From: a virus
Taxonomy: Duplodnaviria > Heunggongvirae > Uroviricota > Caudoviricetes
Direction: 5' to 3' (one strand)
IMG/VR virus record: IMGVR_UViG_2634166457_000011
DNA: 27,413 nucleotides
The translations under genes were made by a program, and so were the position numbers. Below are positions 14,848-26,648 of the stretch, piece after piece; positions within the stretch are counted from its first letter, which is position 1; each line of letters opens with the position of its first letter. The notes below the pieces were generated by a model, which saw only the letters and a list, made by a program, of their open reading frames with translations, searched no databases and had not been told where the DNA came from.

Positions 14848-15258
14848 ATGGCTCAGGCTGCCATTTTTAAAGAAATATTCGATCAAGTGCGTAAAGATTT
14901 AAACTGTGAATTATTTTATTCTGAGCTAAAACGTCACAATGTCTCACTTTATATTTACTATTTAGCCACAGATAATATTCACATTGTGTTAGAAAACGAC
15001 AACATAGTGTTAGTAAAAGGACTCAAAAAGGTTGTAAATGTTAAATTCTCCAGAAACAAACATCTTATAGAGACCTCCTATAATAAGTTGAAATCAAAAG
15101 AAATCACATTTCAACAATACAGGAAAAATCTTGCTAAAGCAGGAGTTTTCCGATGGGTTACAAATATCCAGGAACACCAAAGATATTACTATGCCTTTGA
15201 TAACTCATTACTATTTACTGAAAGCATCCAGAAAACTACACAGATCTTACCACGCTAA
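14848..15258 (+). CDS. ydfO: DUF1398 family protein (YdfO-like)
   Basis: 136 aa from the ATG at 14848 (GGAAGG SD); low GC; resembles the Qin prophage protein YdfO as I recall it. Confidence 0.55.
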
Positions 15259-18775: not shown

Positions 18776-18832
18776 TTGATTTTATTAGTAACAAGTATTT
18801 TTTATATTTTAATAATATATTTAAAGCAGATA

Positions 18833-20029: not shown

Positions 20030-20782
20030 TTATCTCGTCACCTTCCTCAATTGCGCTTCCGCGTATGCTTCTTCCTGCCAGCACTTTGTTACCAGTTTAT
20101 CAATGACGTCCGCATACCCCTTATACCACTGATAATCGGTCAGGTCTGGTACCAGCTTCTGGACATGACGTCGTGCCAGCGTGGTCGGTAAACGACTAAA
20201 TCGGTTTCCATTACAACGCCCACAAATCTTATATACCGGTACGCCATGAAACCGGGTTCTTTTTTCATCCAGAACAATCCCTTTACCCTTACACCCTCTG
20301 CACGCTGTGCTGACTTCGCCCTTACCATGGCAATGCTGACATAGTTCCTTCACCCATTCTTCCTTGATTACAGATTCCCCGCGTCTGTAGTGTTTCACCA
20401 CTTCGCGCAATACATTATAAAATCCCGTACCTGAACAATGCTCACAGCGAGCCTTACTTGCCGCAGACCTGGAGTAATCAGCAAAGGCAAAATTCACGAG
20501 GTAAGGAATAATCTGTAACCGGATTTCTTCACTCAATTTGTTCAATGTCGGGTTATCCAGTGCCATCGCGTAATTTAGCAGGCCTTCAATCGCAAACTGA
20601 GGGTCCTGAACACCAACTTTTGCCAGAAATAAGGCCAACCCAAGTGGTGCTTTCGACTGCACCATCCCCTGCGCTGCCATTACATCCGTAATTGTTAAAC
20701 AACCGGTGCCTGTCGCTGGAGCGTCATCGCTCAATTTTGGAGATTTTGGGGAGTAATATTTTGGTAAGGCTTCAAGGTTCAT
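20030..20782 (-). CDS. quuQ: Late gene antiterminator Q (Cys-rich zinc-binding type)
   Basis: 250 aa; CEHCSGTGF...CQHCHGKGE...CRGCKGKG...CGRCNGNRF; located upstream of the late promoter/terminator and lysis genes. Confidence 0.8.
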
Positions 20783-20795
20783 GCTCGTTCTCCAC

Positions 20796-21845
20796 TTACG
20801 CCAGTACGCCAGTTGCCAGCGCGCGATCGATAAAACGAAATATCAGCTCCAGTTGGGAGCCATACTTCTCTTCAAATGCCACTGTATCCGTATGCAGCTC
20901 GTTGTGATGCTTTCTGCACAAAGGCAACACAAAGAGATCATGTGCTTTTGTTCCCATTCCGCCCTGCCCGTGACCAATCAGATGATGCGGATCGTCGGCT
21001 GGCATACCGCAGCAAGCACACGGCTGTGTCTTAACCCAACGAGTGTATTTCTCCTTAACCCAGCGGCGACGTTTAGGCAGCTTCATGAAAGATTCCGGAG
21101 ACTCTGGATCAACGTTGATGCTTACCACCGTCTTTTCCTGTGGTGGTTTTTGTTGCTGGTGGGCGTAAGGCAACGGTGCAAGATTTTTTGTGCGTTGTTT
21201 CAATATGCTGGTGGCGGTCTGCTCTCCCGGTACGATGTCGCTTTCGCGGTACACCGAGCAGATTTTTTCCGCTGGTAATCCCAACGAACGACGCGATACA
21301 GCCTCAGGTAGTGCATCCACCACCTGATTGCAGACCGCCCACCAGGATAATTCAGCCAAAGATAATTCCCGCTCCTGCGTACCGCTTATTGCGTGACGGA
21401 TGACGTCAATCACCCATGCTGTCAGATTTTGTTGAGCAAGCAGCTCCAGTGATTCCGATGTCTGGTCACGCAGTTGGTTGTCACAGTGCCAGCACAACAC
21501 CATTGCGCCGGTACCATAACGGTGAATGACTGTTTCAGTGTGATGGTAATCGCCATTAGGCCACTGGCAGGATGTAACATGACGTAATAGCCAGTCAGAC
21601 AATGCGCCAACGCCGCCAGCAGCACGAATCACCCGTTCGTTACTAAAAAACGGCAGCAATGTTTTGTCTTCCGCCAGCGGCTGGCGAACGGCAGGAACGA
21701 CTCCGGATGGCAGATTACGCATGCTTTTTGGTTCCGGTTCCACCAGCACTCGAGGATTATGAAATATCTGTATGGATTCACGGCCCGGCTTAAGGACCAC
21801 CAGCCCAAGCTCAGGCACCAGAACAGGTCTAAGTAATACCCGCAC
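20796..21845 (-). CDS. ydfU: DUF968 family protein (YdfU-like) with C-terminal HNH-like Cys/His motif
   Basis: C-terminal CACCGMPADDPHHLIGHGQGGMGTKAHDLFVLPLCRKHHNELH; start set at GTG 21845 right after the upstream stop (track ORF extends to 21884). Confidence 0.55.
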   Translation of the reverse strand: MRVLLRPVLVPELGLVVLKPGRESIQIFHNPRVLVEPEPKSMRNLPSGVVPAVRQPLAEDKTLLPFFSNERVIRAAGGVGALSDWLLRHVTSCQWPNGDYHHTETVIHRYGTGAMVLCWHCDNQLRDQTSESLELLAQQNLTAWVIDVIRHAISGTQERELSLAELSWWAVCNQVVDALPEAVSRRSLGLPAEKICSVYRESDIVPGEQTATSILKQRTKNLAPLPYAHQQQKPPQEKTVVSINVDPESPESFMKLPKRRRWVKEKYTRWVKTQPCACCGMPADDPHHLIGHGQGGMGTKAHDLFVLPLCRKHHNELHTDTVAFEEKYGSQLELIFRFIDRALATGVLA

Positions 21846-21846
21846 G

Positions 21847-22125
21847 TTACCTCCAGATCCGTTGCTGGAAAGTGCGGGACGCACGTGGTGGGCGTTCGGA
21901 ATAAGGCAGCCTGACAGAGATTATCCAGTGCCGATAGTCGAGACTGAGAGCTTTCTTAACCTCGAACCCGCGCCTGCGGTAAGAATGAATCAGCCATTCG
22001 GCCTGTTCTGCAGTGCATGGAGGGTGCTGGAACCATTCAGACTTGAATGCGTGAGAATACCGCCCGTGCGTGCAGGCAAGAACGGGCGAATTATCAGAAT
22101 TGTAATATTTTACGTTGCGTGCCAT
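21847..22125 (-). CDS. Hypothetical protein (92 aa)
   Basis: ATG at 22125 with GGAG 8 nt upstream. Confidence 0.4.
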   Translation of the reverse strand: MARNVKYYNSDNSPVLACTHGRYSHAFKSEWFQHPPCTAEQAEWLIHSYRRRGFEVKKALSLDYRHWIISVRLPYSERPPRASRTFQQRIWR

Positions 22126-22191
22126 CGGTTTTCTCCGGTGGCACGGTGTTACTCAGCGGGAGTTCAGCCCCGCGCAAGATTGTAGATGAGT

Positions 22192-22443
22192 TTATTCTTC
22201 TGCAAAAGCTGAAAAGCCTGCTTTTATTCCGATCTCTTTCAGTGCCTGTAATGAAGTGACAAACTCACCGTCGCGCAAGATAAATCCGTCCGTCACTCGG
22301 GCATCCACAAAATTAATTAACGCAGCCCCATTTTTTTGCAAACACACAATGCGGTAATGACTAACAATATTTCCATTTTCGACGCACACAGCATAGAGGC
22401 CATCTTCACAAAAAATTTTACGCAGTTCTTCGATGTTCATCAT
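22192..22443 (-). CDS. Hypothetical protein (83 aa; possibly Rem-like)
   Basis: MMNIEELRKIFCEDGLYAVCVENGN...; GGAAGGA SD; same length and position as K-12 Qin rem as I recall it, sequence identity not verified. Confidence 0.45.
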   Translation of the reverse strand: MMNIEELRKIFCEDGLYAVCVENGNIVSHYRIVCLQKNGAALINFVDARVTDGFILRDGEFVTSLQALKEIGIKAGFSAFAEE

Positions 22444-22570
22444 CAGAATCCTTCCGGATAATTAGCTCTCCCCTTTAAGGGACCATCCCTCTTATCCCTG
22501 CGCGCTACTTAAGTATTTTTGATTCTATTCCGGCACCGTCCAGAACTTCAAACGCGTTGAAAATAAAAAC

Positions 22571-22594
22571 AAAAACCCGCCGAAGCGGGTTAAG
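22571..22594 (-). terminator. Intrinsic terminator at the 3' end of the hok transcript
   Basis: Minus strand AACCCGCTTCGGCGGGTTTTTGTTTTT; a second strong hairpin GGCGAGGGA-GAAA-TCCCTCGCC lies at 22631..22652 just after the hok stop. Confidence 0.55.
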
Positions 22595-22659
22595 TGCGGG
22601 TGCGTTGAGGATGCCTGCCACATCAGAGGTGGCGAGGGATTTCTCCCTCGCCGGGTCTC

Positions 22660-22815
22660 TTACTCCTCAGGTTCGTAAGCTGTGAAGACAGCGACCTCCG
22701 TCTGGCCGGTTCGGATTCGTACCTCGCAGAGGTCTTTCCTCGTTACCAGTGTCGTCACTATGACGGTTAAACAGATGACGATTAGGGCGATTAACATCGC
22801 CTTTTGCTGCTTCAT
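22660..22815 (-). CDS. hokD: Hok-family type I toxin (HokD/RelF-like), 51 aa
   Basis: MKQQKAMLIALIVICLTVIVTTLVTRKDLCEVRIRTGQTEVAVFTAYEPEE; AAGGAG SD; the track ORF carries an in-frame 19-codon upstream extension. Confidence 0.85.
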   Translation of the reverse strand: MKQQKAMLIALIVICLTVIVTTLVTRKDLCEVRIRTGQTEVAVFTAYEPEE

Positions 22816-22991
22816 AGCCTGCTTCTCCTTGCCTTCCGGCACGTAAGAGGCTAACCTACATGTGTCTAGCATGAAATTGGCCTCAGATTAATGTTAAGCG
22901 TCTTGCAGGACGCGTAATGTTAACTGGGGCTTTTCTCTATCTGCCTTTGGTGTTCATGCCCGAGGCATGATAGCCTCAGGCACCAGCAGCC

Positions 22992-23020
22992 ATTCTACTT
23001 AACTCCCGTTACCTCGCCAA
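22992..23020 (-). promoter_or_regulatory. Putative hok promoter
   Basis: Minus strand TTGGCG (23020..23015), 17-nt spacer, TAGAAT (22997..22992); would give a ~170-nt leader typical of hok mRNAs. Confidence 0.5.
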
Positions 23021-23027
23021 TATGAAA

Positions 23028-23117
23028 TCAGTCAGAAAGGCGATCCATAAGAACAATAGCAAGACAATAAATTGCCATTACAGCAGCAATAGCCAGCGCA
23101 CATTTGAGAACCAGCAC
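23028..23117 (-). CDS. Candidate small hydrophobic peptide (29 aa, GTG start)
   Basis: GAGG then 5 nt then GTG; translation (M)LVLKCALAIAAVMAIYCLAIVLMDRLSD is a single transmembrane-like helix with a charged tail. Speculative. Confidence 0.2.
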   Translation of the reverse strand: MLVLKCALAIAAVMAIYCLAIVLMDRLSD

Positions 23118-23448
23118 GATAACCTCATGTATTGGACGTACACCACTCCTGATAAATATGAGGTTGTCTCGTCAGTGATTCAAGACAACTATTGGATATA
23201 GTTTCTCTGATTTTTTCTGGGGAAATGGGACTCAAGAACCAGTCACCACCAGCACTTCTTTTAATACGCAAAGTCCGACTCAAGCTAACCTTCCAGTCCG
23301 CTTTGTGCGAAGAACGGACTTATCTGTACAAGGGAACTATCCAGCAATGGAGATCACCCAAAAGAAAAAACTCCTGGCTCCCCTCGACAACCTTCATCGG
23401 GGCAATTAGCCTCAATCAACATTTTTATATCTGTCAGGTGACTTCATT

Positions 23449-24357
23449 ATGAAAAATGATATCAAAACCCTCGACCTTAACTTACTTAAGACCTTTGATG
23501 CGTTAATGGATGAGGGAAGCGTGACTCGAGCTGCGCAGCGACTCTCCCTGACGCAGCCCGCTGTCAGTGGCATGCTTATTCGATTACGTGATTATTTTTG
23601 CGATCCTCTCTTTGTTCGCACCAGTCACGGTATGGTTCCCACACTACGTGCCAAAGAACTTGCTATGCCGGTAAAACAAATTCTCACCGATATAGCTATT
23701 CTGCTGAAACCAAGTAAATTTGAACCCATGACGGCAGAACTAACTTATACCATTGTCGCAACGGACTATGCAGTTAAGGCTGTTGTTGTCCCATTGATGG
23801 CTGCGCTGAAACATCGAGCACCGAATATTAAAATCTCTGTGCGGGCTGTAGACAATAAACGAATGTATCAGCAGTTATCTCAGGGAGAAGTGGATCTGGC
23901 TTTGGTAACACCACAAACTACTCCCGGAGAGCTGCACGGCAGAGCACTTTATGAAGAAGATTATGTTTGCATAGCACGACGGAATCATCCGTTGTCAGCG
24001 AATTCAGAAATGACACTCGAACAATTTTGCAAACAGGAACATATTCTGGTGTCTTCAGAAGGTAGCTTCTCCGGTGTTACAGATGAAGCACTGGCTAAAC
24101 TCAGTCTGACACGACGAGTAGGCATGTCAGTTAATAGTTTTCAAGTAGTTCCTGATATATTGCAAGTGACTGATATGATCGCTGTTGTCCCCCGCCGCAT
24201 GGTCTTGACTAACAACGATCTGATCATACTCCCTTTGCCCCTTAAAGTTCCGGGCTTTACCAAGAGTATGGCCTGGCATGAACGAACTCATCGTGACCCT
24301 AGCCATCAGTGGATTCGGGCTTTATGCGTAGAAGTTAGCCAACATACTGGCTCCTGA
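23449..24357 (+). CDS. LysR-family transcriptional regulator
   Basis: 302 aa; N-terminal HTH LLKTFDALMDEGSVTRAAQRLSLTQPAVSGMLIRLRD; LysR substrate-binding-type C-terminal region. Confidence 0.9.
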   Translation: MKNDIKTLDLNLLKTFDALMDEGSVTRAAQRLSLTQPAVSGMLIRLRDYFCDPLFVRTSHGMVPTLRAKELAMPVKQILTDIAILLKPSKFEPMTAELTYTIVATDYAVKAVVVPLMAALKHRAPNIKISVRAVDNKRMYQQLSQGEVDLALVTPQTTPGELHGRALYEEDYVCIARRNHPLSANSEMTLEQFCKQEHILVSSEGSFSGVTDEALAKLSLTRRVGMSVNSFQVVPDILQVTDMIAVVPRRMVLTNNDLIILPLPLKVPGFTKSMAWHERTHRDPSHQWIRALCVEVSQHTGS

Positions 24358-24377
24358 TATAATTTATCTTATTAAGA

Positions 24378-24405
24378 TTATAAGTAATCACAATTCGTCT
24401 TATAA
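24378..24405 (+). promoter_or_regulatory. Inverted repeat TTATAAG-N14-CTTATAA upstream of the SRPBCC gene (candidate LysR-type binding site)
   Basis: Perfect 7-bp arms at 24378..24384 and 24399..24405; candidate -10 TACAAT at 24463..24468. Confidence 0.4.
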
Positions 24406-24492
24406 CTTCATTGCGCTAATAATCACTGCCATCGTGTTGCGGCCGTAACGCAGCAAACCCAGTACAATTAACTACCGCAATTGGAGACATTT

Positions 24493-24999
24493 ATGAACGC
24501 TATTCACTGGCCAGAAGGCTTTGTTCCGGGATTTACTGATAACTTTGTTTCTAATGAAATGATCATATCCGGCCTGAACGTCAATGATGTTTGGCCACTC
24601 CTTAGTCAGCCATTGCTATGGCCGGAATACTATAAAAATTCAGCAGATGTGCGCTTTTATAACAATAAAGGTCCGGATCTGGAAAATGGAGTGCGCTTTT
24701 ACTTCAGCACATTTGGATTTCCGGTTGAAGCTCAGGTCGTGGAATTTATTCCACCTGTTGAAGGTAAACCTGCTCGTTTGGCATGGCACGGATGGTCAGG
24801 TGAAAAAGATACTGTTCAACGCCTCGATGTTCATCATGCGTGGCTACTGGAGGAACTCTCGGGTAACAGACTCCGTATCCTGACGCAGGAAACGCAGAAC
24901 GGAGTTCCGGCAAAAAAACTGGCAAATACTCGTCCGAACCCAATGCTCAATGGTCACCAGGAGTGGCTTGACGGCCTGATTCTGGCTGCAAAGAAATAA
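24493..24999 (+). CDS. SRPBCC-superfamily (polyketide cyclase/START-like) protein
   Basis: 168 aa from the ATG at 24493 (GGAG SD); sequence resembles small ligand-binding SRPBCC proteins; recalled, not searched. Confidence 0.6.
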   Translation: MNAIHWPEGFVPGFTDNFVSNEMIISGLNVNDVWPLLSQPLLWPEYYKNSADVRFYNNKGPDLENGVRFYFSTFGFPVEAQVVEFIPPVEGKPARLAWHGWSGEKDTVQRLDVHHAWLLEELSGNRLRILTQETQNGVPAKKLANTRPNPMLNGHQEWLDGLILAAKK

Positions 25000-25228
25000 T
25001 TACTACTTTTGCAGAAAAGTATCACTGCGGTTACATTTTCCCCAACATCCTCATAATATTTTCATCTTTACTATTGAACTTGAGCACAGGTAAATCCTGT
25101 GCTCCTCTCTAAGTGACAGCGCATGGCCATATTTGCAAATGCCGTTTCTGGCACAAAGCAAACTACCACGCTAGCTCTACCCTGCACCATGAAAATGTCA
25201 ATTCGCATCTGAACTAATACTCTTTAAT

Positions 25229-25642
25229 CTAGTAAATAACATTTCCCTGATAAAATGCCAGGATGCGCTGCATAACTTCGCTCTTCCGGCACTCGCGACA
25301 GATTATGTTTAGACGACTGTCGTAGCGACGTATTTCTCCGTCAGGTAATAACCAGATAAGGTCCGGATCAACCACAGCAGGTTTCTTCACCTTTGCCCTC
25401 GAGAGTTTTTTGCGGGCGTTTTGCCAGTCCTTACGCGCCTGTTCAGAGGGGAATAACCCGTAGCCGGAGTTGTATACATCGCCACTAGCAACCAGCTCTC
25501 TGGCAAGAACGCTCATCAGATATCTTGTCGCACCTGTTTTAGCTTCCAGTTGCCGTAACGTCTCTCGACCGCTCTGGCGCACGAGTTCCACCACCTGCCC
25601 TTTAATTTTTTCCCGCTCTTCTTGTGTAAAAACTTTTGCCAC
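25229..25642 (-). CDS. Hypothetical protein (137 aa) downstream of the replication initiator; possible winged-helix plus C-terminal CxxC
   Basis: GTG start with AAGGGGGA SD; sits where a helicase loader would be expected but is far too small for one. Confidence 0.45.
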   Translation of the reverse strand: MAKVFTQEEREKIKGQVVELVRQSGRETLRQLEAKTGATRYLMSVLARELVASGDVYNSGYGLFPSEQARKDWQNARKKLSRAKVKKPAVVDPDLIWLLPDGEIRRYDSRLNIICRECRKSEVMQRILAFYQGNVIY

Positions 25643-25682: not shown

Positions 25683-26648
25683 TTATCCTCTGAAACCAGG
25701 CGGAATTTCTGTATCCGGTTCAGAAATATGATTCACACAACGCTGTACAGGTGAACGTCCCAGGCGGATGACCAGTTCGTCCCATTTTTCGCGGAGTTTT
25801 GACGGGCTCATGATGTTTTTTACCCAGAATGGATCCCGCTGTACCCGACCAAACATTTCGCAAATTTGTCTGTGGCTTCTGCCATCCAGCATCCGCATTG
25901 TGCGCACGTCATTGGCCCAGGCTGTCCAGTTAGGCTCTTTTGGTCGCATGATCTCTCCATCGTCGCTGGCAGCCTGTTCGTAAAGGTTCACGATCCGCCC
26001 CCAAATCCACTGCGCACACGCCAAATCCTCCCTGCTACCCCACTGGCGTTTTTTCACACTAAACACAACCGCGTCGGGGTTCCGGGTTAAAAAATCCTGT
26101 TCAGTCGTCTGCGGGTCCGGTTGCGAAGCTTCCGGACGAAAAGTGTTTTTATTCTCTGTAGTAATCTCTGTTGTATTCTCTGTAAGATCATCAGGCCATT
26201 TTGACCCGATGGCATTGGGTCGTTTTGAACCAATGGAGCGTTTCATTTTGACCTCTTCCATCGTGTCATTTTGACCTGATGGAGCGGCGCATTTTGAACC
26301 GATGGATTCGTTCAATTTGCCACCATCTAAAAGCTCGCTCCCATAGTTGATCGTGTAGAAATTGGTCATATCGCGCTTTGATTTATTGAGCTTTTCACAA
26401 CGCAAAAGCCCCAGCGTTTTCAGACTTGCAAACGCGCGCTTTAACGTTGACTCTGACCAGAATGGGAACTGTTCCAGCCATTGTTCCGTTGTGTTATAAA
26501 TCCAGCGAACACCATCACATTCCATACCGGAGTTGGTATCTCTCAACCAGTAGTGCAGTTGTTGCAAAACAATGGCTTCGTTTAAGCCGATTTTCATTGC
26601 CAGCTGCGTGTTTATAACCAGTGGGCGTTCAGCAAAAAGAAGACTCAT
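25683..26648 (-). CDS. Replication initiator (lambda O-like replisome organizer) with ori iterons in its coding sequence
   Basis: N-terminal domain MSLLFAERPLVINTQLAMKIGLNEAIVLQQLHYWL; repeated IGSK peptide motif encoded by DNA direct repeats; first ATG at 26648. Confidence 0.7.
   Translation of the reverse strand: MSLLFAERPLVINTQLAMKIGLNEAIVLQQLHYWLRDTNSGMECDGVRWIYNTTEQWLEQFPFWSESTLKRAFASLKTLGLLRCEKLNKSKRDMTNFYTINYGSELLDGGKLNESIGSKCAAPSGQNDTMEEVKMKRSIGSKRPNAIGSKWPDDLTENTTEITTENKNTFRPEASQPDPQTTEQDFLTRNPDAVVFSVKKRQWGSREDLACAQWIWGRIVNLYEQAASDDGEIMRPKEPNWTAWANDVRTMRMLDGRSHRQICEMFGRVQRDPFWVKNIMSPSKLREKWDELVIRLGRSPVQRCVNHISEPDTEIPPGFRG
26197..26327 (-). repeat. Iteron array (about 6 direct repeats, 23-24 bp period), putative replication origin
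   Basis: Repeats of CATTTTGA(C/A)C(N)GATGG starting at 26197, 26221, 26244, 26267, 26290 and 26313; flanked at 26152..26184 by three TCTCTGT repeats at 12-bp spacing in an AT-rich stretch. Confidence 0.6.

Follow-up and report, generated by a model that had tools for sequence, protein, structure and literature searches.

Origins of replication that combine iterons with an unwinding element inside the gene for their own initiator are well known, with phage lambda, phage SPP1 and the RepA_N replicons as examples. In lambda, four annotated 18-bp iterons lie in the middle of O at spacings of 20, 24 and 23 bp, and are followed by an A-rich, purine-biased stretch and then by a palindrome. The origin of RepA_N plasmids reportedly lies inside the rep gene as well. 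RepA_N iterons have been described as semi-palindromic direct repeats whose inverted arms converge on an A-tract (PMC7145576). For phage 80alpha, a deletion of ORF20 cannot be complemented in trans, which is genetic evidence for an origin within that gene (PMC5499656), and in the plasmids RK2 and F the winged-helix Rep proteins TrfA and RepE bind both the double-stranded iterons and one strand of the repeated 13-mers in the unwinding element (PMC4081077). Here, we describe a locus of this general kind in a 27,413-nucleotide stretch of viral DNA (IMG/VR virus record IMGVR_UViG_2634166457_000011; the window, below, means this whole stretch), which is the right part of a lambdoid prophage with its genes on the minus strand. 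A block at 26115-26325, in the linker-coding part of an O-like replication initiator gene, is very probably the vegetative (theta-type) replication origin of this prophage.

The block begins with an array of six in-phase repeats on the coding (minus) strand of the initiator gene (26191-26325), with core-to-core spacings of 23, 23, 23, 23 and 24 bp, and continues with a set of shorter phased repeats. Read in the direction of transcription, the gene and the elements within it are:

25683..26648, minus strand: O-like replication initiator gene, 321 amino acids (aa), ATG at 26648, stop at 25683-25685
26307..26325, minus strand: iteron R1, degenerate, TGGTGGCA-AAT-TGAACGAA, in register 23 bp upstream of R2
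26284..26302, minus strand: iteron R2, TCGGTTCA-AAA-TGCGCCGC, exact 16-mer match, dyad 5/8, encodes S-I-G-S-K
26261..26279, minus strand: iteron R3, TCAGGTCA-AAA-TGACACGA, exact 16-mer match, dyad 6/8, other frame, P-S-G-Q-N-D
26238..26256, minus strand: iteron R4, AGAGGTCA-AAA-TGAAACGC, core GGTCAAAATG perfect, dyad 3/8, third frame, E-E-V-K-M-K
26215..26233, minus strand: iteron R5, TTGGTTCA-AAA-CGACCCAA, exact 16-mer match, dyad 6/8
26191..26209, minus strand: iteron R6, TCGGGTCA-AAA-TGGCCTGA, exact 16-mer match, dyad 6/8, adjoins the unwinding block
26147..26183, minus strand: three phased repeats CAGAGAnTAnnA with a 12-bp period, candidate DNA unwinding element
26115..26137, minus strand: inverted repeat GTCCGG-(11 nt)-CCGGAC, tentative, downstream of the unwinding block

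An earlier, sequence-only reading of this DNA had pointed to six direct repeats of a roughly 16-bp motif at 23-24 bp periodicity in the initiator gene, and all six are indeed present as four exact copies, one that keeps only the core, and one that is degenerate. The exact copies match the degenerate 16-mer CCATYRGKTCAAAAYG at 26197-26212, 26221-26236, 26267-26282 and 26290-26305, and this 16-mer has no match in 100 dinucleotide-preserving shuffles of the window. The fifth copy (26244-26259) retains the 10-nt core GGTCAAAATG alone, perfect at 26244-26253, and the sixth (26313-26328, GGTGGCAAATTG) is degenerate yet in register. This last position, R1, reads GAGGTCAAAGTGA in relatives and is among the two most variable copies, while the core of R6 is the least variable, with 1 of its 10 columns variable among 59 unique E. 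coli-type genes.

A dyad-symmetric site of about 19 bp, centred on CA-AAA-TG, describes the functional unit better than a 16-mer does. Each site consists of an 8-nt left arm ending in CA, the AAA centre, and an 8-nt right arm starting with TG, with GGTCA-AAA-TGRCC as the core consensus. The arms match at 5-6 of 8 positions in four of the window copies and at 7-8 of 8 in several other lineages. Between lineages, the CA-AAA-TG centre is invariant and the arms differ, and direct comparison of the arms shows that they co-vary: the pair is GGTCA/TGACC in E. coli and Staphylococcus types, GGGCA/TGCMC in Erwinia and Pseudomonas types, and GTATCA/TGATAC, GGATCA/TGATCC, TGCTCA/TGAGCA or CGCCA/TGGCG in further lineages. 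Palindromic arms that co-vary in this manner are the hallmark of a binding site for a symmetric dimer.

On the 3' side of the iterons in the direction of transcription, ACAGAGA (TCTCTGT on the plus strand) recurs at 26177-26183, 26165-26171 and 26153-26159, and Tandem Repeats Finder (TRF) also reports the 12-bp period. The sequence-only reading had noted these three TCTCTGT copies at 12-bp spacing in an AT-rich stretch after the iterons, and both parts of that description hold. The CAGAGA block has the lowest G+C content in the initiator gene (33%) and contains the gene's least stable 40-mer, at 26146-26185, whose nearest-neighbour free energy of -44.3 kcal/mol falls at the 98th percentile, against a mean of -54.9 kcal/mol (standard deviation 4.6) for 40-mers of the window. 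Further downstream, the inverted repeat at 26115-26137 is possibly a weak analogue of the palindrome that lies to the right of lambda's AT-rich region. We rejected it as a third conserved component of the origin: a stem at least as long arises in 39 of 300 shuffles, so that the repeat is not significant, and only about 6 of 16 lineages have a related GTCNGG...CCNGAC pair.

A repetitive protein can give rise to repetitive DNA, and one alternative is that the repeats are a by-product of a low-complexity linker (IGSK, TExTTE) with no role as DNA. The block does encode an inter-domain linker, IGSK is read from three copies, and 37 of 41 CAGAGA motifs lie in a single codon phase that encodes T-E. 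However, IGSK, which the sequence-only reading had taken to be encoded by the repeats in general, comes from just those three of the six iterons, with PSGQND, EEVKMK and GGKL encoded by the rest. A 23-bp period, not being divisible by 3, puts these copies in other reading frames, and the repeat is thus a feature of the DNA and not of the peptide. In 16 divergent lineages, the same iteron core is found in all three codon phases, in proportions of 23:18:12.

Selection at the DNA level can be observed directly in the third codon positions of the 59 E. coli-type genes. These positions are variable in 82% of cases in the N-domain, 41% in the iteron block, 12.5% in the CAGAGA block, 68% in the linker that follows, and 92% in the C-domain, so that variability is suppressed precisely at the putative origin (20/60 positions variable, versus 222/260 in the rest of the gene; Fisher p = 4e-15). 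When all codon positions are counted, the CAGAGA block has 5 variable columns out of 37, and the linker that comes after it 55 out of 85 (p = 1e-7). Of the 34 Thr-Glu dicodons in the 330-nt region that follows the N-domain, 26 are written ACA-GAG. The codon before GAG may be ACA, GCA, CCA or TCA, with the residue changing between T, A, P and S and the CA remaining constant, and the choice of ACA-GAG is fixed even in AT-rich Staphylococcus phages. Bacillus and Staphylococcus-type lineages have CAGAGA spacings of 10-11 bp that shift the frame (PETTQRIPETT), but the DNA motif is kept. The co-variation of the dyad arms, moreover, has no meaning at the level of the peptide. We therefore consider it extremely improbable that the repeats merely reflect the linker. 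A peptide by-product, with no DNA conservation in relatives, was what the sequence-only reading had itself named as a finding that would speak against an origin; what we see are three codon phases, suppressed third positions, and DNA motifs that persist even in distant relatives such as Staphylococcus and Bacillus phages. The odd conservation of the initiator's linker is explained if its DNA doubles as coding sequence and replicator.

The wider distribution of these elements points in the same direction. A first IMG/VR scan gave at least 565 tblastn-confirmed matches, and among the matches listed there were only near-identical E. coli prophages; the diversity described here comes from separate IMG/VR scans seeded with Staphylococcus, Pseudomonas and Bacillus homologues. 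In the phage lineages examined, the N-domain is followed by two to seven CAAAATG-centred dyads with a period of 21-24 bp, and then by two to five CAGAGAnTAC repeats with a period of 11-12 bp. In 14 of 16 lineages, the iterons are followed by CAGAGA repeats, which have a density of 7.8 per kb in the 330-nt region and lie on the coding strand only; the rest of the same loci has 0.28 per kb per strand. This cassette is found in phages of Klebsiella (ST147-VIM1phi7.2), Erwinia (PEp14), Pseudomonas (AF and 8P), Staphylococcus and Bacillus, with its parts almost unchanged in the last two, and direct inspection shows that it tracks the N-domain whatever the C-domain or the host. The Klebsiella phage, for instance, has only the N-domain and the origin part in common with the window, and its C-domain differs. 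In the Firmicute phages, the C-domain is DnaD-like and genes for a loader and a helicase come next.

The N-domain family includes the staphylococcal phages 96, 42E, P954 and fPfSau02. Three iterons of S. aureus phage vB_SauS_fPfSau02 (at about 1810-1872 of its locus) align to R2-R4 (26237-26298) over 62 nt at about 84% identity, and binding specificity seems, from sequence, to have been kept across phyla. By eye, this identity looks higher than that of the aligned N-domain coding stretch. For origins already described in this N-domain family in Staphylococcus or replisome-organiser phages, the literature gave only the unrelated G38P/80alpha case. Small plasmids carry the N-domain too. One of them, a 15-kb plasmid from Paracaedibacter, has a gene of the initiator family that adjoins parA and contains two CGACAAAATGTCG repeats. 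Among more distant plasmid homologues (Cyanobacteria, Rickettsiales, Clostridium), palindromic iterons can be recognised in some only, and the CAGAGA block has degenerated or is missing. Not every member of the protein family, therefore, has the cassette.

Within E. coli, 1861 of 5426 complete genomes carry a 241-bp segment spanning the proposed origin (26100-26340), matched over at least 80% of its length, and a single genome may have up to 4 copies. The initiator gene in these genomes is mostly annotated as 'hypothetical protein'. An origin of this type in about a third of complete E. coli genomes, next to such a label, is an opportunity to improve annotation.

The initiator itself is a mosaic of three parts:

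26328..26648, minus strand: N-terminal winged-helix domain (aa 1-107), presumed to bind the iterons
25767..26210, minus strand: stretch that aligns to lambda O (aa 147-294), with the conserved C-domain at about aa 200-294
25686..25748, minus strand: C-terminal 21 residues, VQRCVNHISEPDTEIPPGFRG, DnaT-like tail

Against PHROGs, the protein matches PHROG 391, 'replication initiation O-like' (E 2e-92), and also PHROGs 277 and 9773. Pfam and NCBIfam have no family for either of its domains, save for a sub-threshold DnaT match in the tail, and an hmmscan search of Pfam-A with the whole protein and with aa 1-107 alone found no replication-protein family at E values up to 10. The fold predicted for the N-domain is a DnaD-like winged helix that is structurally closest to the RepA_N plasmid initiators (PDB 4pta, 4pql). 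For the C-domain, homology to lambda O is indicated by sequence: aa 147-294 align with aa 135-270 of lambda O at 34% identity (BLASTP, E 1e-27), and the DNA of this lambda-O-like part is also found in lambdoid 'O' genes with different N-domains, those of SfII and SfIV among them. Public protein sets also hold many products of 100-190 aa that are 95-100% identical to the N-domain and end in or just after the iteron region. Among the matches listed only such short products appear, many of them partial or from very short contigs, and they are probably breaks in assembly or gene calling, or a search artefact, instead of real truncations.

The tail matches the extreme C-terminus of E. coli DnaT (…VNTVSEPDSQIPPGFRG). 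It aligns with positions 160-179 of the 179 in NCBIfam DnaT model NF002770, at 16 bits versus a cutoff of 201, and is identical at 14-15 of 21 residues to the DnaT chains 2ru8, 6aep and 9zbt in PDB, over DnaT positions 159-179 only. The N-terminal oligomerisation domain and the C-terminal three-helix single-stranded DNA-binding domain of DnaT have no match in the initiator. Since only the last 20-21 residues resemble DnaT, the name 'Primosomal protein I' given to phage homologues is an over-annotation, one that the tail itself probably explains. Relatives with other C-domains likewise end in IPAGFRG or VPAGFRS. We conjecture from this resemblance that the tail may be an adaptor to the host's helicase-loading machinery.

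Several features of the neighbourhood bear on how such an initiator would work. The interval between the initiator gene and Q (window 20030-25642) contains no P-, DnaC- or DnaB-like loader or helicase gene; its sole contents are a DUF977/Ren-like gene, the cargo genes, a hok/mok-like gene, a PHROG-96 'HNH endonuclease' gene and small unknown open reading frames (ORFs). A loader or helicase gene is likewise missing from phages PhiR42_1 and mEp460_4F5, whose replication module consists of the initiator only, and in viable phages (PhiR42_1 and the mEp460 variants) the initiator gene is the sole recognisable replication gene. No sigma-70-like promoter was found inside the initiator gene, and DnaA boxes are at chance level (4 found versus 3.2 expected).

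From these elements we infer binding, melting, helicase recruitment and firing, and with them origin activity, in the following form. Dimers of the N-terminal winged-helix domain would bind five or six of the dyad iterons (GGTCA-AAA-TGRCC), which at 23 bp lie about 2.2 helical turns apart, and the bound array would form a bent or wrapped nucleoprotein complex resembling the lambda O-some. Stress from this complex would then melt the adjoining low-stability block of three phased CAGAGAnTAC repeats. The wide conservation of the CAGAGA sequence suggests that sequence-specific contacts probably hold one strand of this block as well, in the way that plasmid Rep proteins bind their 13-mers, and its conservation across hosts that share no adaptor domain suggests that the reader is either the conserved N-domain or some universally conserved property. 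The lambda-O-like C-domain and the DnaT-like tail would bring the host DnaB-DnaC (primosome) machinery to the bubble, in a phage with no P-type loader or helicase of its own. Transcription from the early promoter on the cro side would pass through the origin, as it does in lambda.

A more general possibility, which we put forward only tentatively and consider less likely to be right than wrong, is that a single origin cassette has spread across phyla. It would consist of a winged-helix N-domain that has no Pfam family, the CAAAATG dyads, and a sequence-specific CAGAGAnTAC unwinding element, and would be exchanged between host-specific C-terminal adaptors, which by sequence would be lambda-O-like with a DnaT tail in enterobacteria and DnaD-like in Firmicutes. 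The CAGAGA repeats would be a single-strand element read by the initiator, by analogy with DnaA-trios or the 13-mers of RK2, and the DnaT-mimicking tail would capture the host's restart primosome in place of a P-type loader. We found no earlier description of this cassette as a unit in the literature.

Plasmid iteron arrays also serve autorepression and handcuffing. The array could, in the same way, be a genuine binding site for the initiator whose main role is autoregulation or copy control (as a roadblock or through handcuffing), with initiation taking place elsewhere in the prophage. Its position inside a transcribed gene would suit such a role, and the window contains AT-rich intergenic stretches that are much less stable than the CAGAGA block, such as 18781-18820 and 24357-24396. 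However, there is no second iteron cluster in the 27.4-kb window, with about 20 kb of the prophage lying beyond its end, and a pure operator would have no need of the conserved low-stability CAGAGA block after the iterons. The precedents of lambda, RepA_N and SPP1 also place the origin at intragenic arrays of this type. We accordingly think a mainly regulatory array unlikely.

Some observations weigh against our proposal that the block is a replication origin. In the literature, we found no binding, melting or autonomous-replication experiment for any member of the origin family, and the iteron and CAGAGA strings matched only unrelated primer and guide RNA sequences. R1 and R4 are poor dyads, and among the E. 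coli-type genes the difference in variability between the 10-nt cores (22/60 variable) and the spacers (33/72) is not significant (p = 0.38). With its 33% G+C, the CAGAGA block is AT-rich to a moderate degree only, and lower stability is found in many of the window's intergenic 40-mers. The single codon phase of most CAGAGA motifs leaves room for a minor contribution at the protein level, through a T-E-x-T-T-E linker. On the side of the protein, the match to the RepA_N fold comes from a predicted model, at 11-19% identity and with a Foldseek E-value that is modest. A profile built from 64 N-domain homologues and searched against PDB sequences at E values up to 10 gave weak PadR-type winged-helix matches only and none to RepA_N. 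A 2026 paper on the preprimosome assigns no function to the extreme C-terminal tail of DnaT.

A further question is whether the prophage can still replicate. Its genes and other features around the initiator gene are:

27364-27134, minus strand: Cro/DicC-like gene
27150-26629, minus strand: cII/YdaT-like gene
25642-25229, minus strand: DUF977/Ren-like gene, directly after the initiator gene
24481-24999, plus strand: SRPBCC-domain gene, cargo
23449-24357, plus strand: LysR-type regulator gene, cargo
22660-22872: hok/mok-like gene

Beyond the hok/mok-like gene come the PHROG-96 'HNH endonuclease' gene, Q, and the lysis, terminase, portal, protease/capsid and tape-measure genes. Defective prophages are common in E. 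coli, and the block might be an origin by descent that has become an inert relic in a replication-defective element. The cargo segment at 23449-24999 replaces sequence found in related prophages, and the left arm and immunity region lie outside the window. Against this, the initiator ORF is intact, with the same length of 321 aa as, and 97.8% nucleotide identity to, the 'DNA replication protein O' gene of the viable Escherichia phage PhiR42_1 (and 96-97.5% DNA identity to the genes of mEp460_ev081 and HannyBb). The block retains its six iteron positions and its three CAGAGA repeats intact, and the window has long ORFs for Q and for each of the lysis, terminase, portal, protease/capsid and tape-measure genes. 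An inert relic is, in our estimation, improbable.

Several other features of the region deserve mention. The cII/YdaT-like ORF overlaps the region of the initiator's start codon by 20 nt (26629-26648), which suggests translational coupling of the two genes. A longer initiator ORF that starts with TTG extends to 26702, and homologues are annotated from the ATG at 26648. The LysR-type and SRPBCC genes lie inside the early-right operon on the strand opposite to it, and matches to E. coli prophages start only at about 25132-25148, so the segment looks like a swapped cargo (moron) insert; the very AT-rich 40-mer at 24357-24396 lies between these two genes. Between the lysis and packaging genes, an AT-rich region contains two copies of a 21-bp unit (14981-15022, TRF score 63).

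An origin at about 26.1-26.3 kb of the window would give this prophage a defined start of replication. It would offer a handle on a sequence-specific unwinding element that is used across Gram-positive and Gram-negative hosts, and on how a lambdoid phage that has no P-type loader recruits a helicase. Cloned origins of this type could serve as practical tools, for example as phage-specific replication decoys or mini-replicons.

Among the described systems, RK2 and F offer the best precedent, by analogy, for conservation of the CAGAGA repeats in sequence and not merely in AT-richness. There, as here, the iterons lie beside an unwinding element made of repeated, sequence-specific units. The proteins and the repeat sequences are unrelated, however, and the plasmid origins are intergenic and dependent on DnaA boxes, whereas the window has no DnaA-box enrichment. 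SPP1 (G38P and oriL) and 80alpha (ORF20) resemble the locus in having the origin inside the initiator gene, bound by the initiator's N-terminal domain, but belong to another protein family, 80alpha ORF20 being a homologue of G38P.

The RepA_N initiators of Gram-positive plasmids (pSK41 and pTZ2162; PDB 4pta, 4pql) and the RepA of Vibrio PLE share the predicted winged-helix fold of the N-domain, for which they are the best structural match. The iterons of the window conform to the semi-palindromic, A-tract-centred definition given for RepA_N (PMC7145576), and in RepA_N the N-terminal domain binds DNA and the C-terminal domain is host-specific and interchangeable, as would be the case here. The window initiator differs in that it does not belong to Pfam RepA_N (PF06970) by sequence, its C-domain is lambda-O-like, and the element that carries it is an integrated lambdoid prophage and not a plasmid.

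Lambda is the system to which the sequence-only reading had likened the locus, describing the architecture of lambda ori embedded in gene O. Compared feature by feature, the layout agrees and the N-terminal domain, which is not of the lambda O type, does not. The window's N-domain has no match to Phage_rep_O (PF04492), the iteron sequences are unrelated (GGTCAAAATGRCC versus ATCCCTCAAAACGAGGGA), and the unwinding block consists of conserved phased CAGAGAnTAC repeats in place of an A-run. The window also has no P gene, the gene downstream being DUF977/Ren-like, and its initiator carries the extra DnaT-like tail at the C-terminus. On the side of likeness, the origin in both is in the middle of the initiator gene, with the iterons at the boundary between the DNA-binding N-domain and the C-domain; four to six dyad iterons lie 20-24 bp apart, as in the origins of lambda and of the Stx phages, which have six; and a low-stability, purine-biased block comes next in the direction of transcription. 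The C-domains, through which O contacts P in lambda, are homologous, and the gene order (cro, cII-like, O, ren-like) is the same. In its architecture, as far as sequence can tell, the origin is lambda-like and an ordinary element of its kind.

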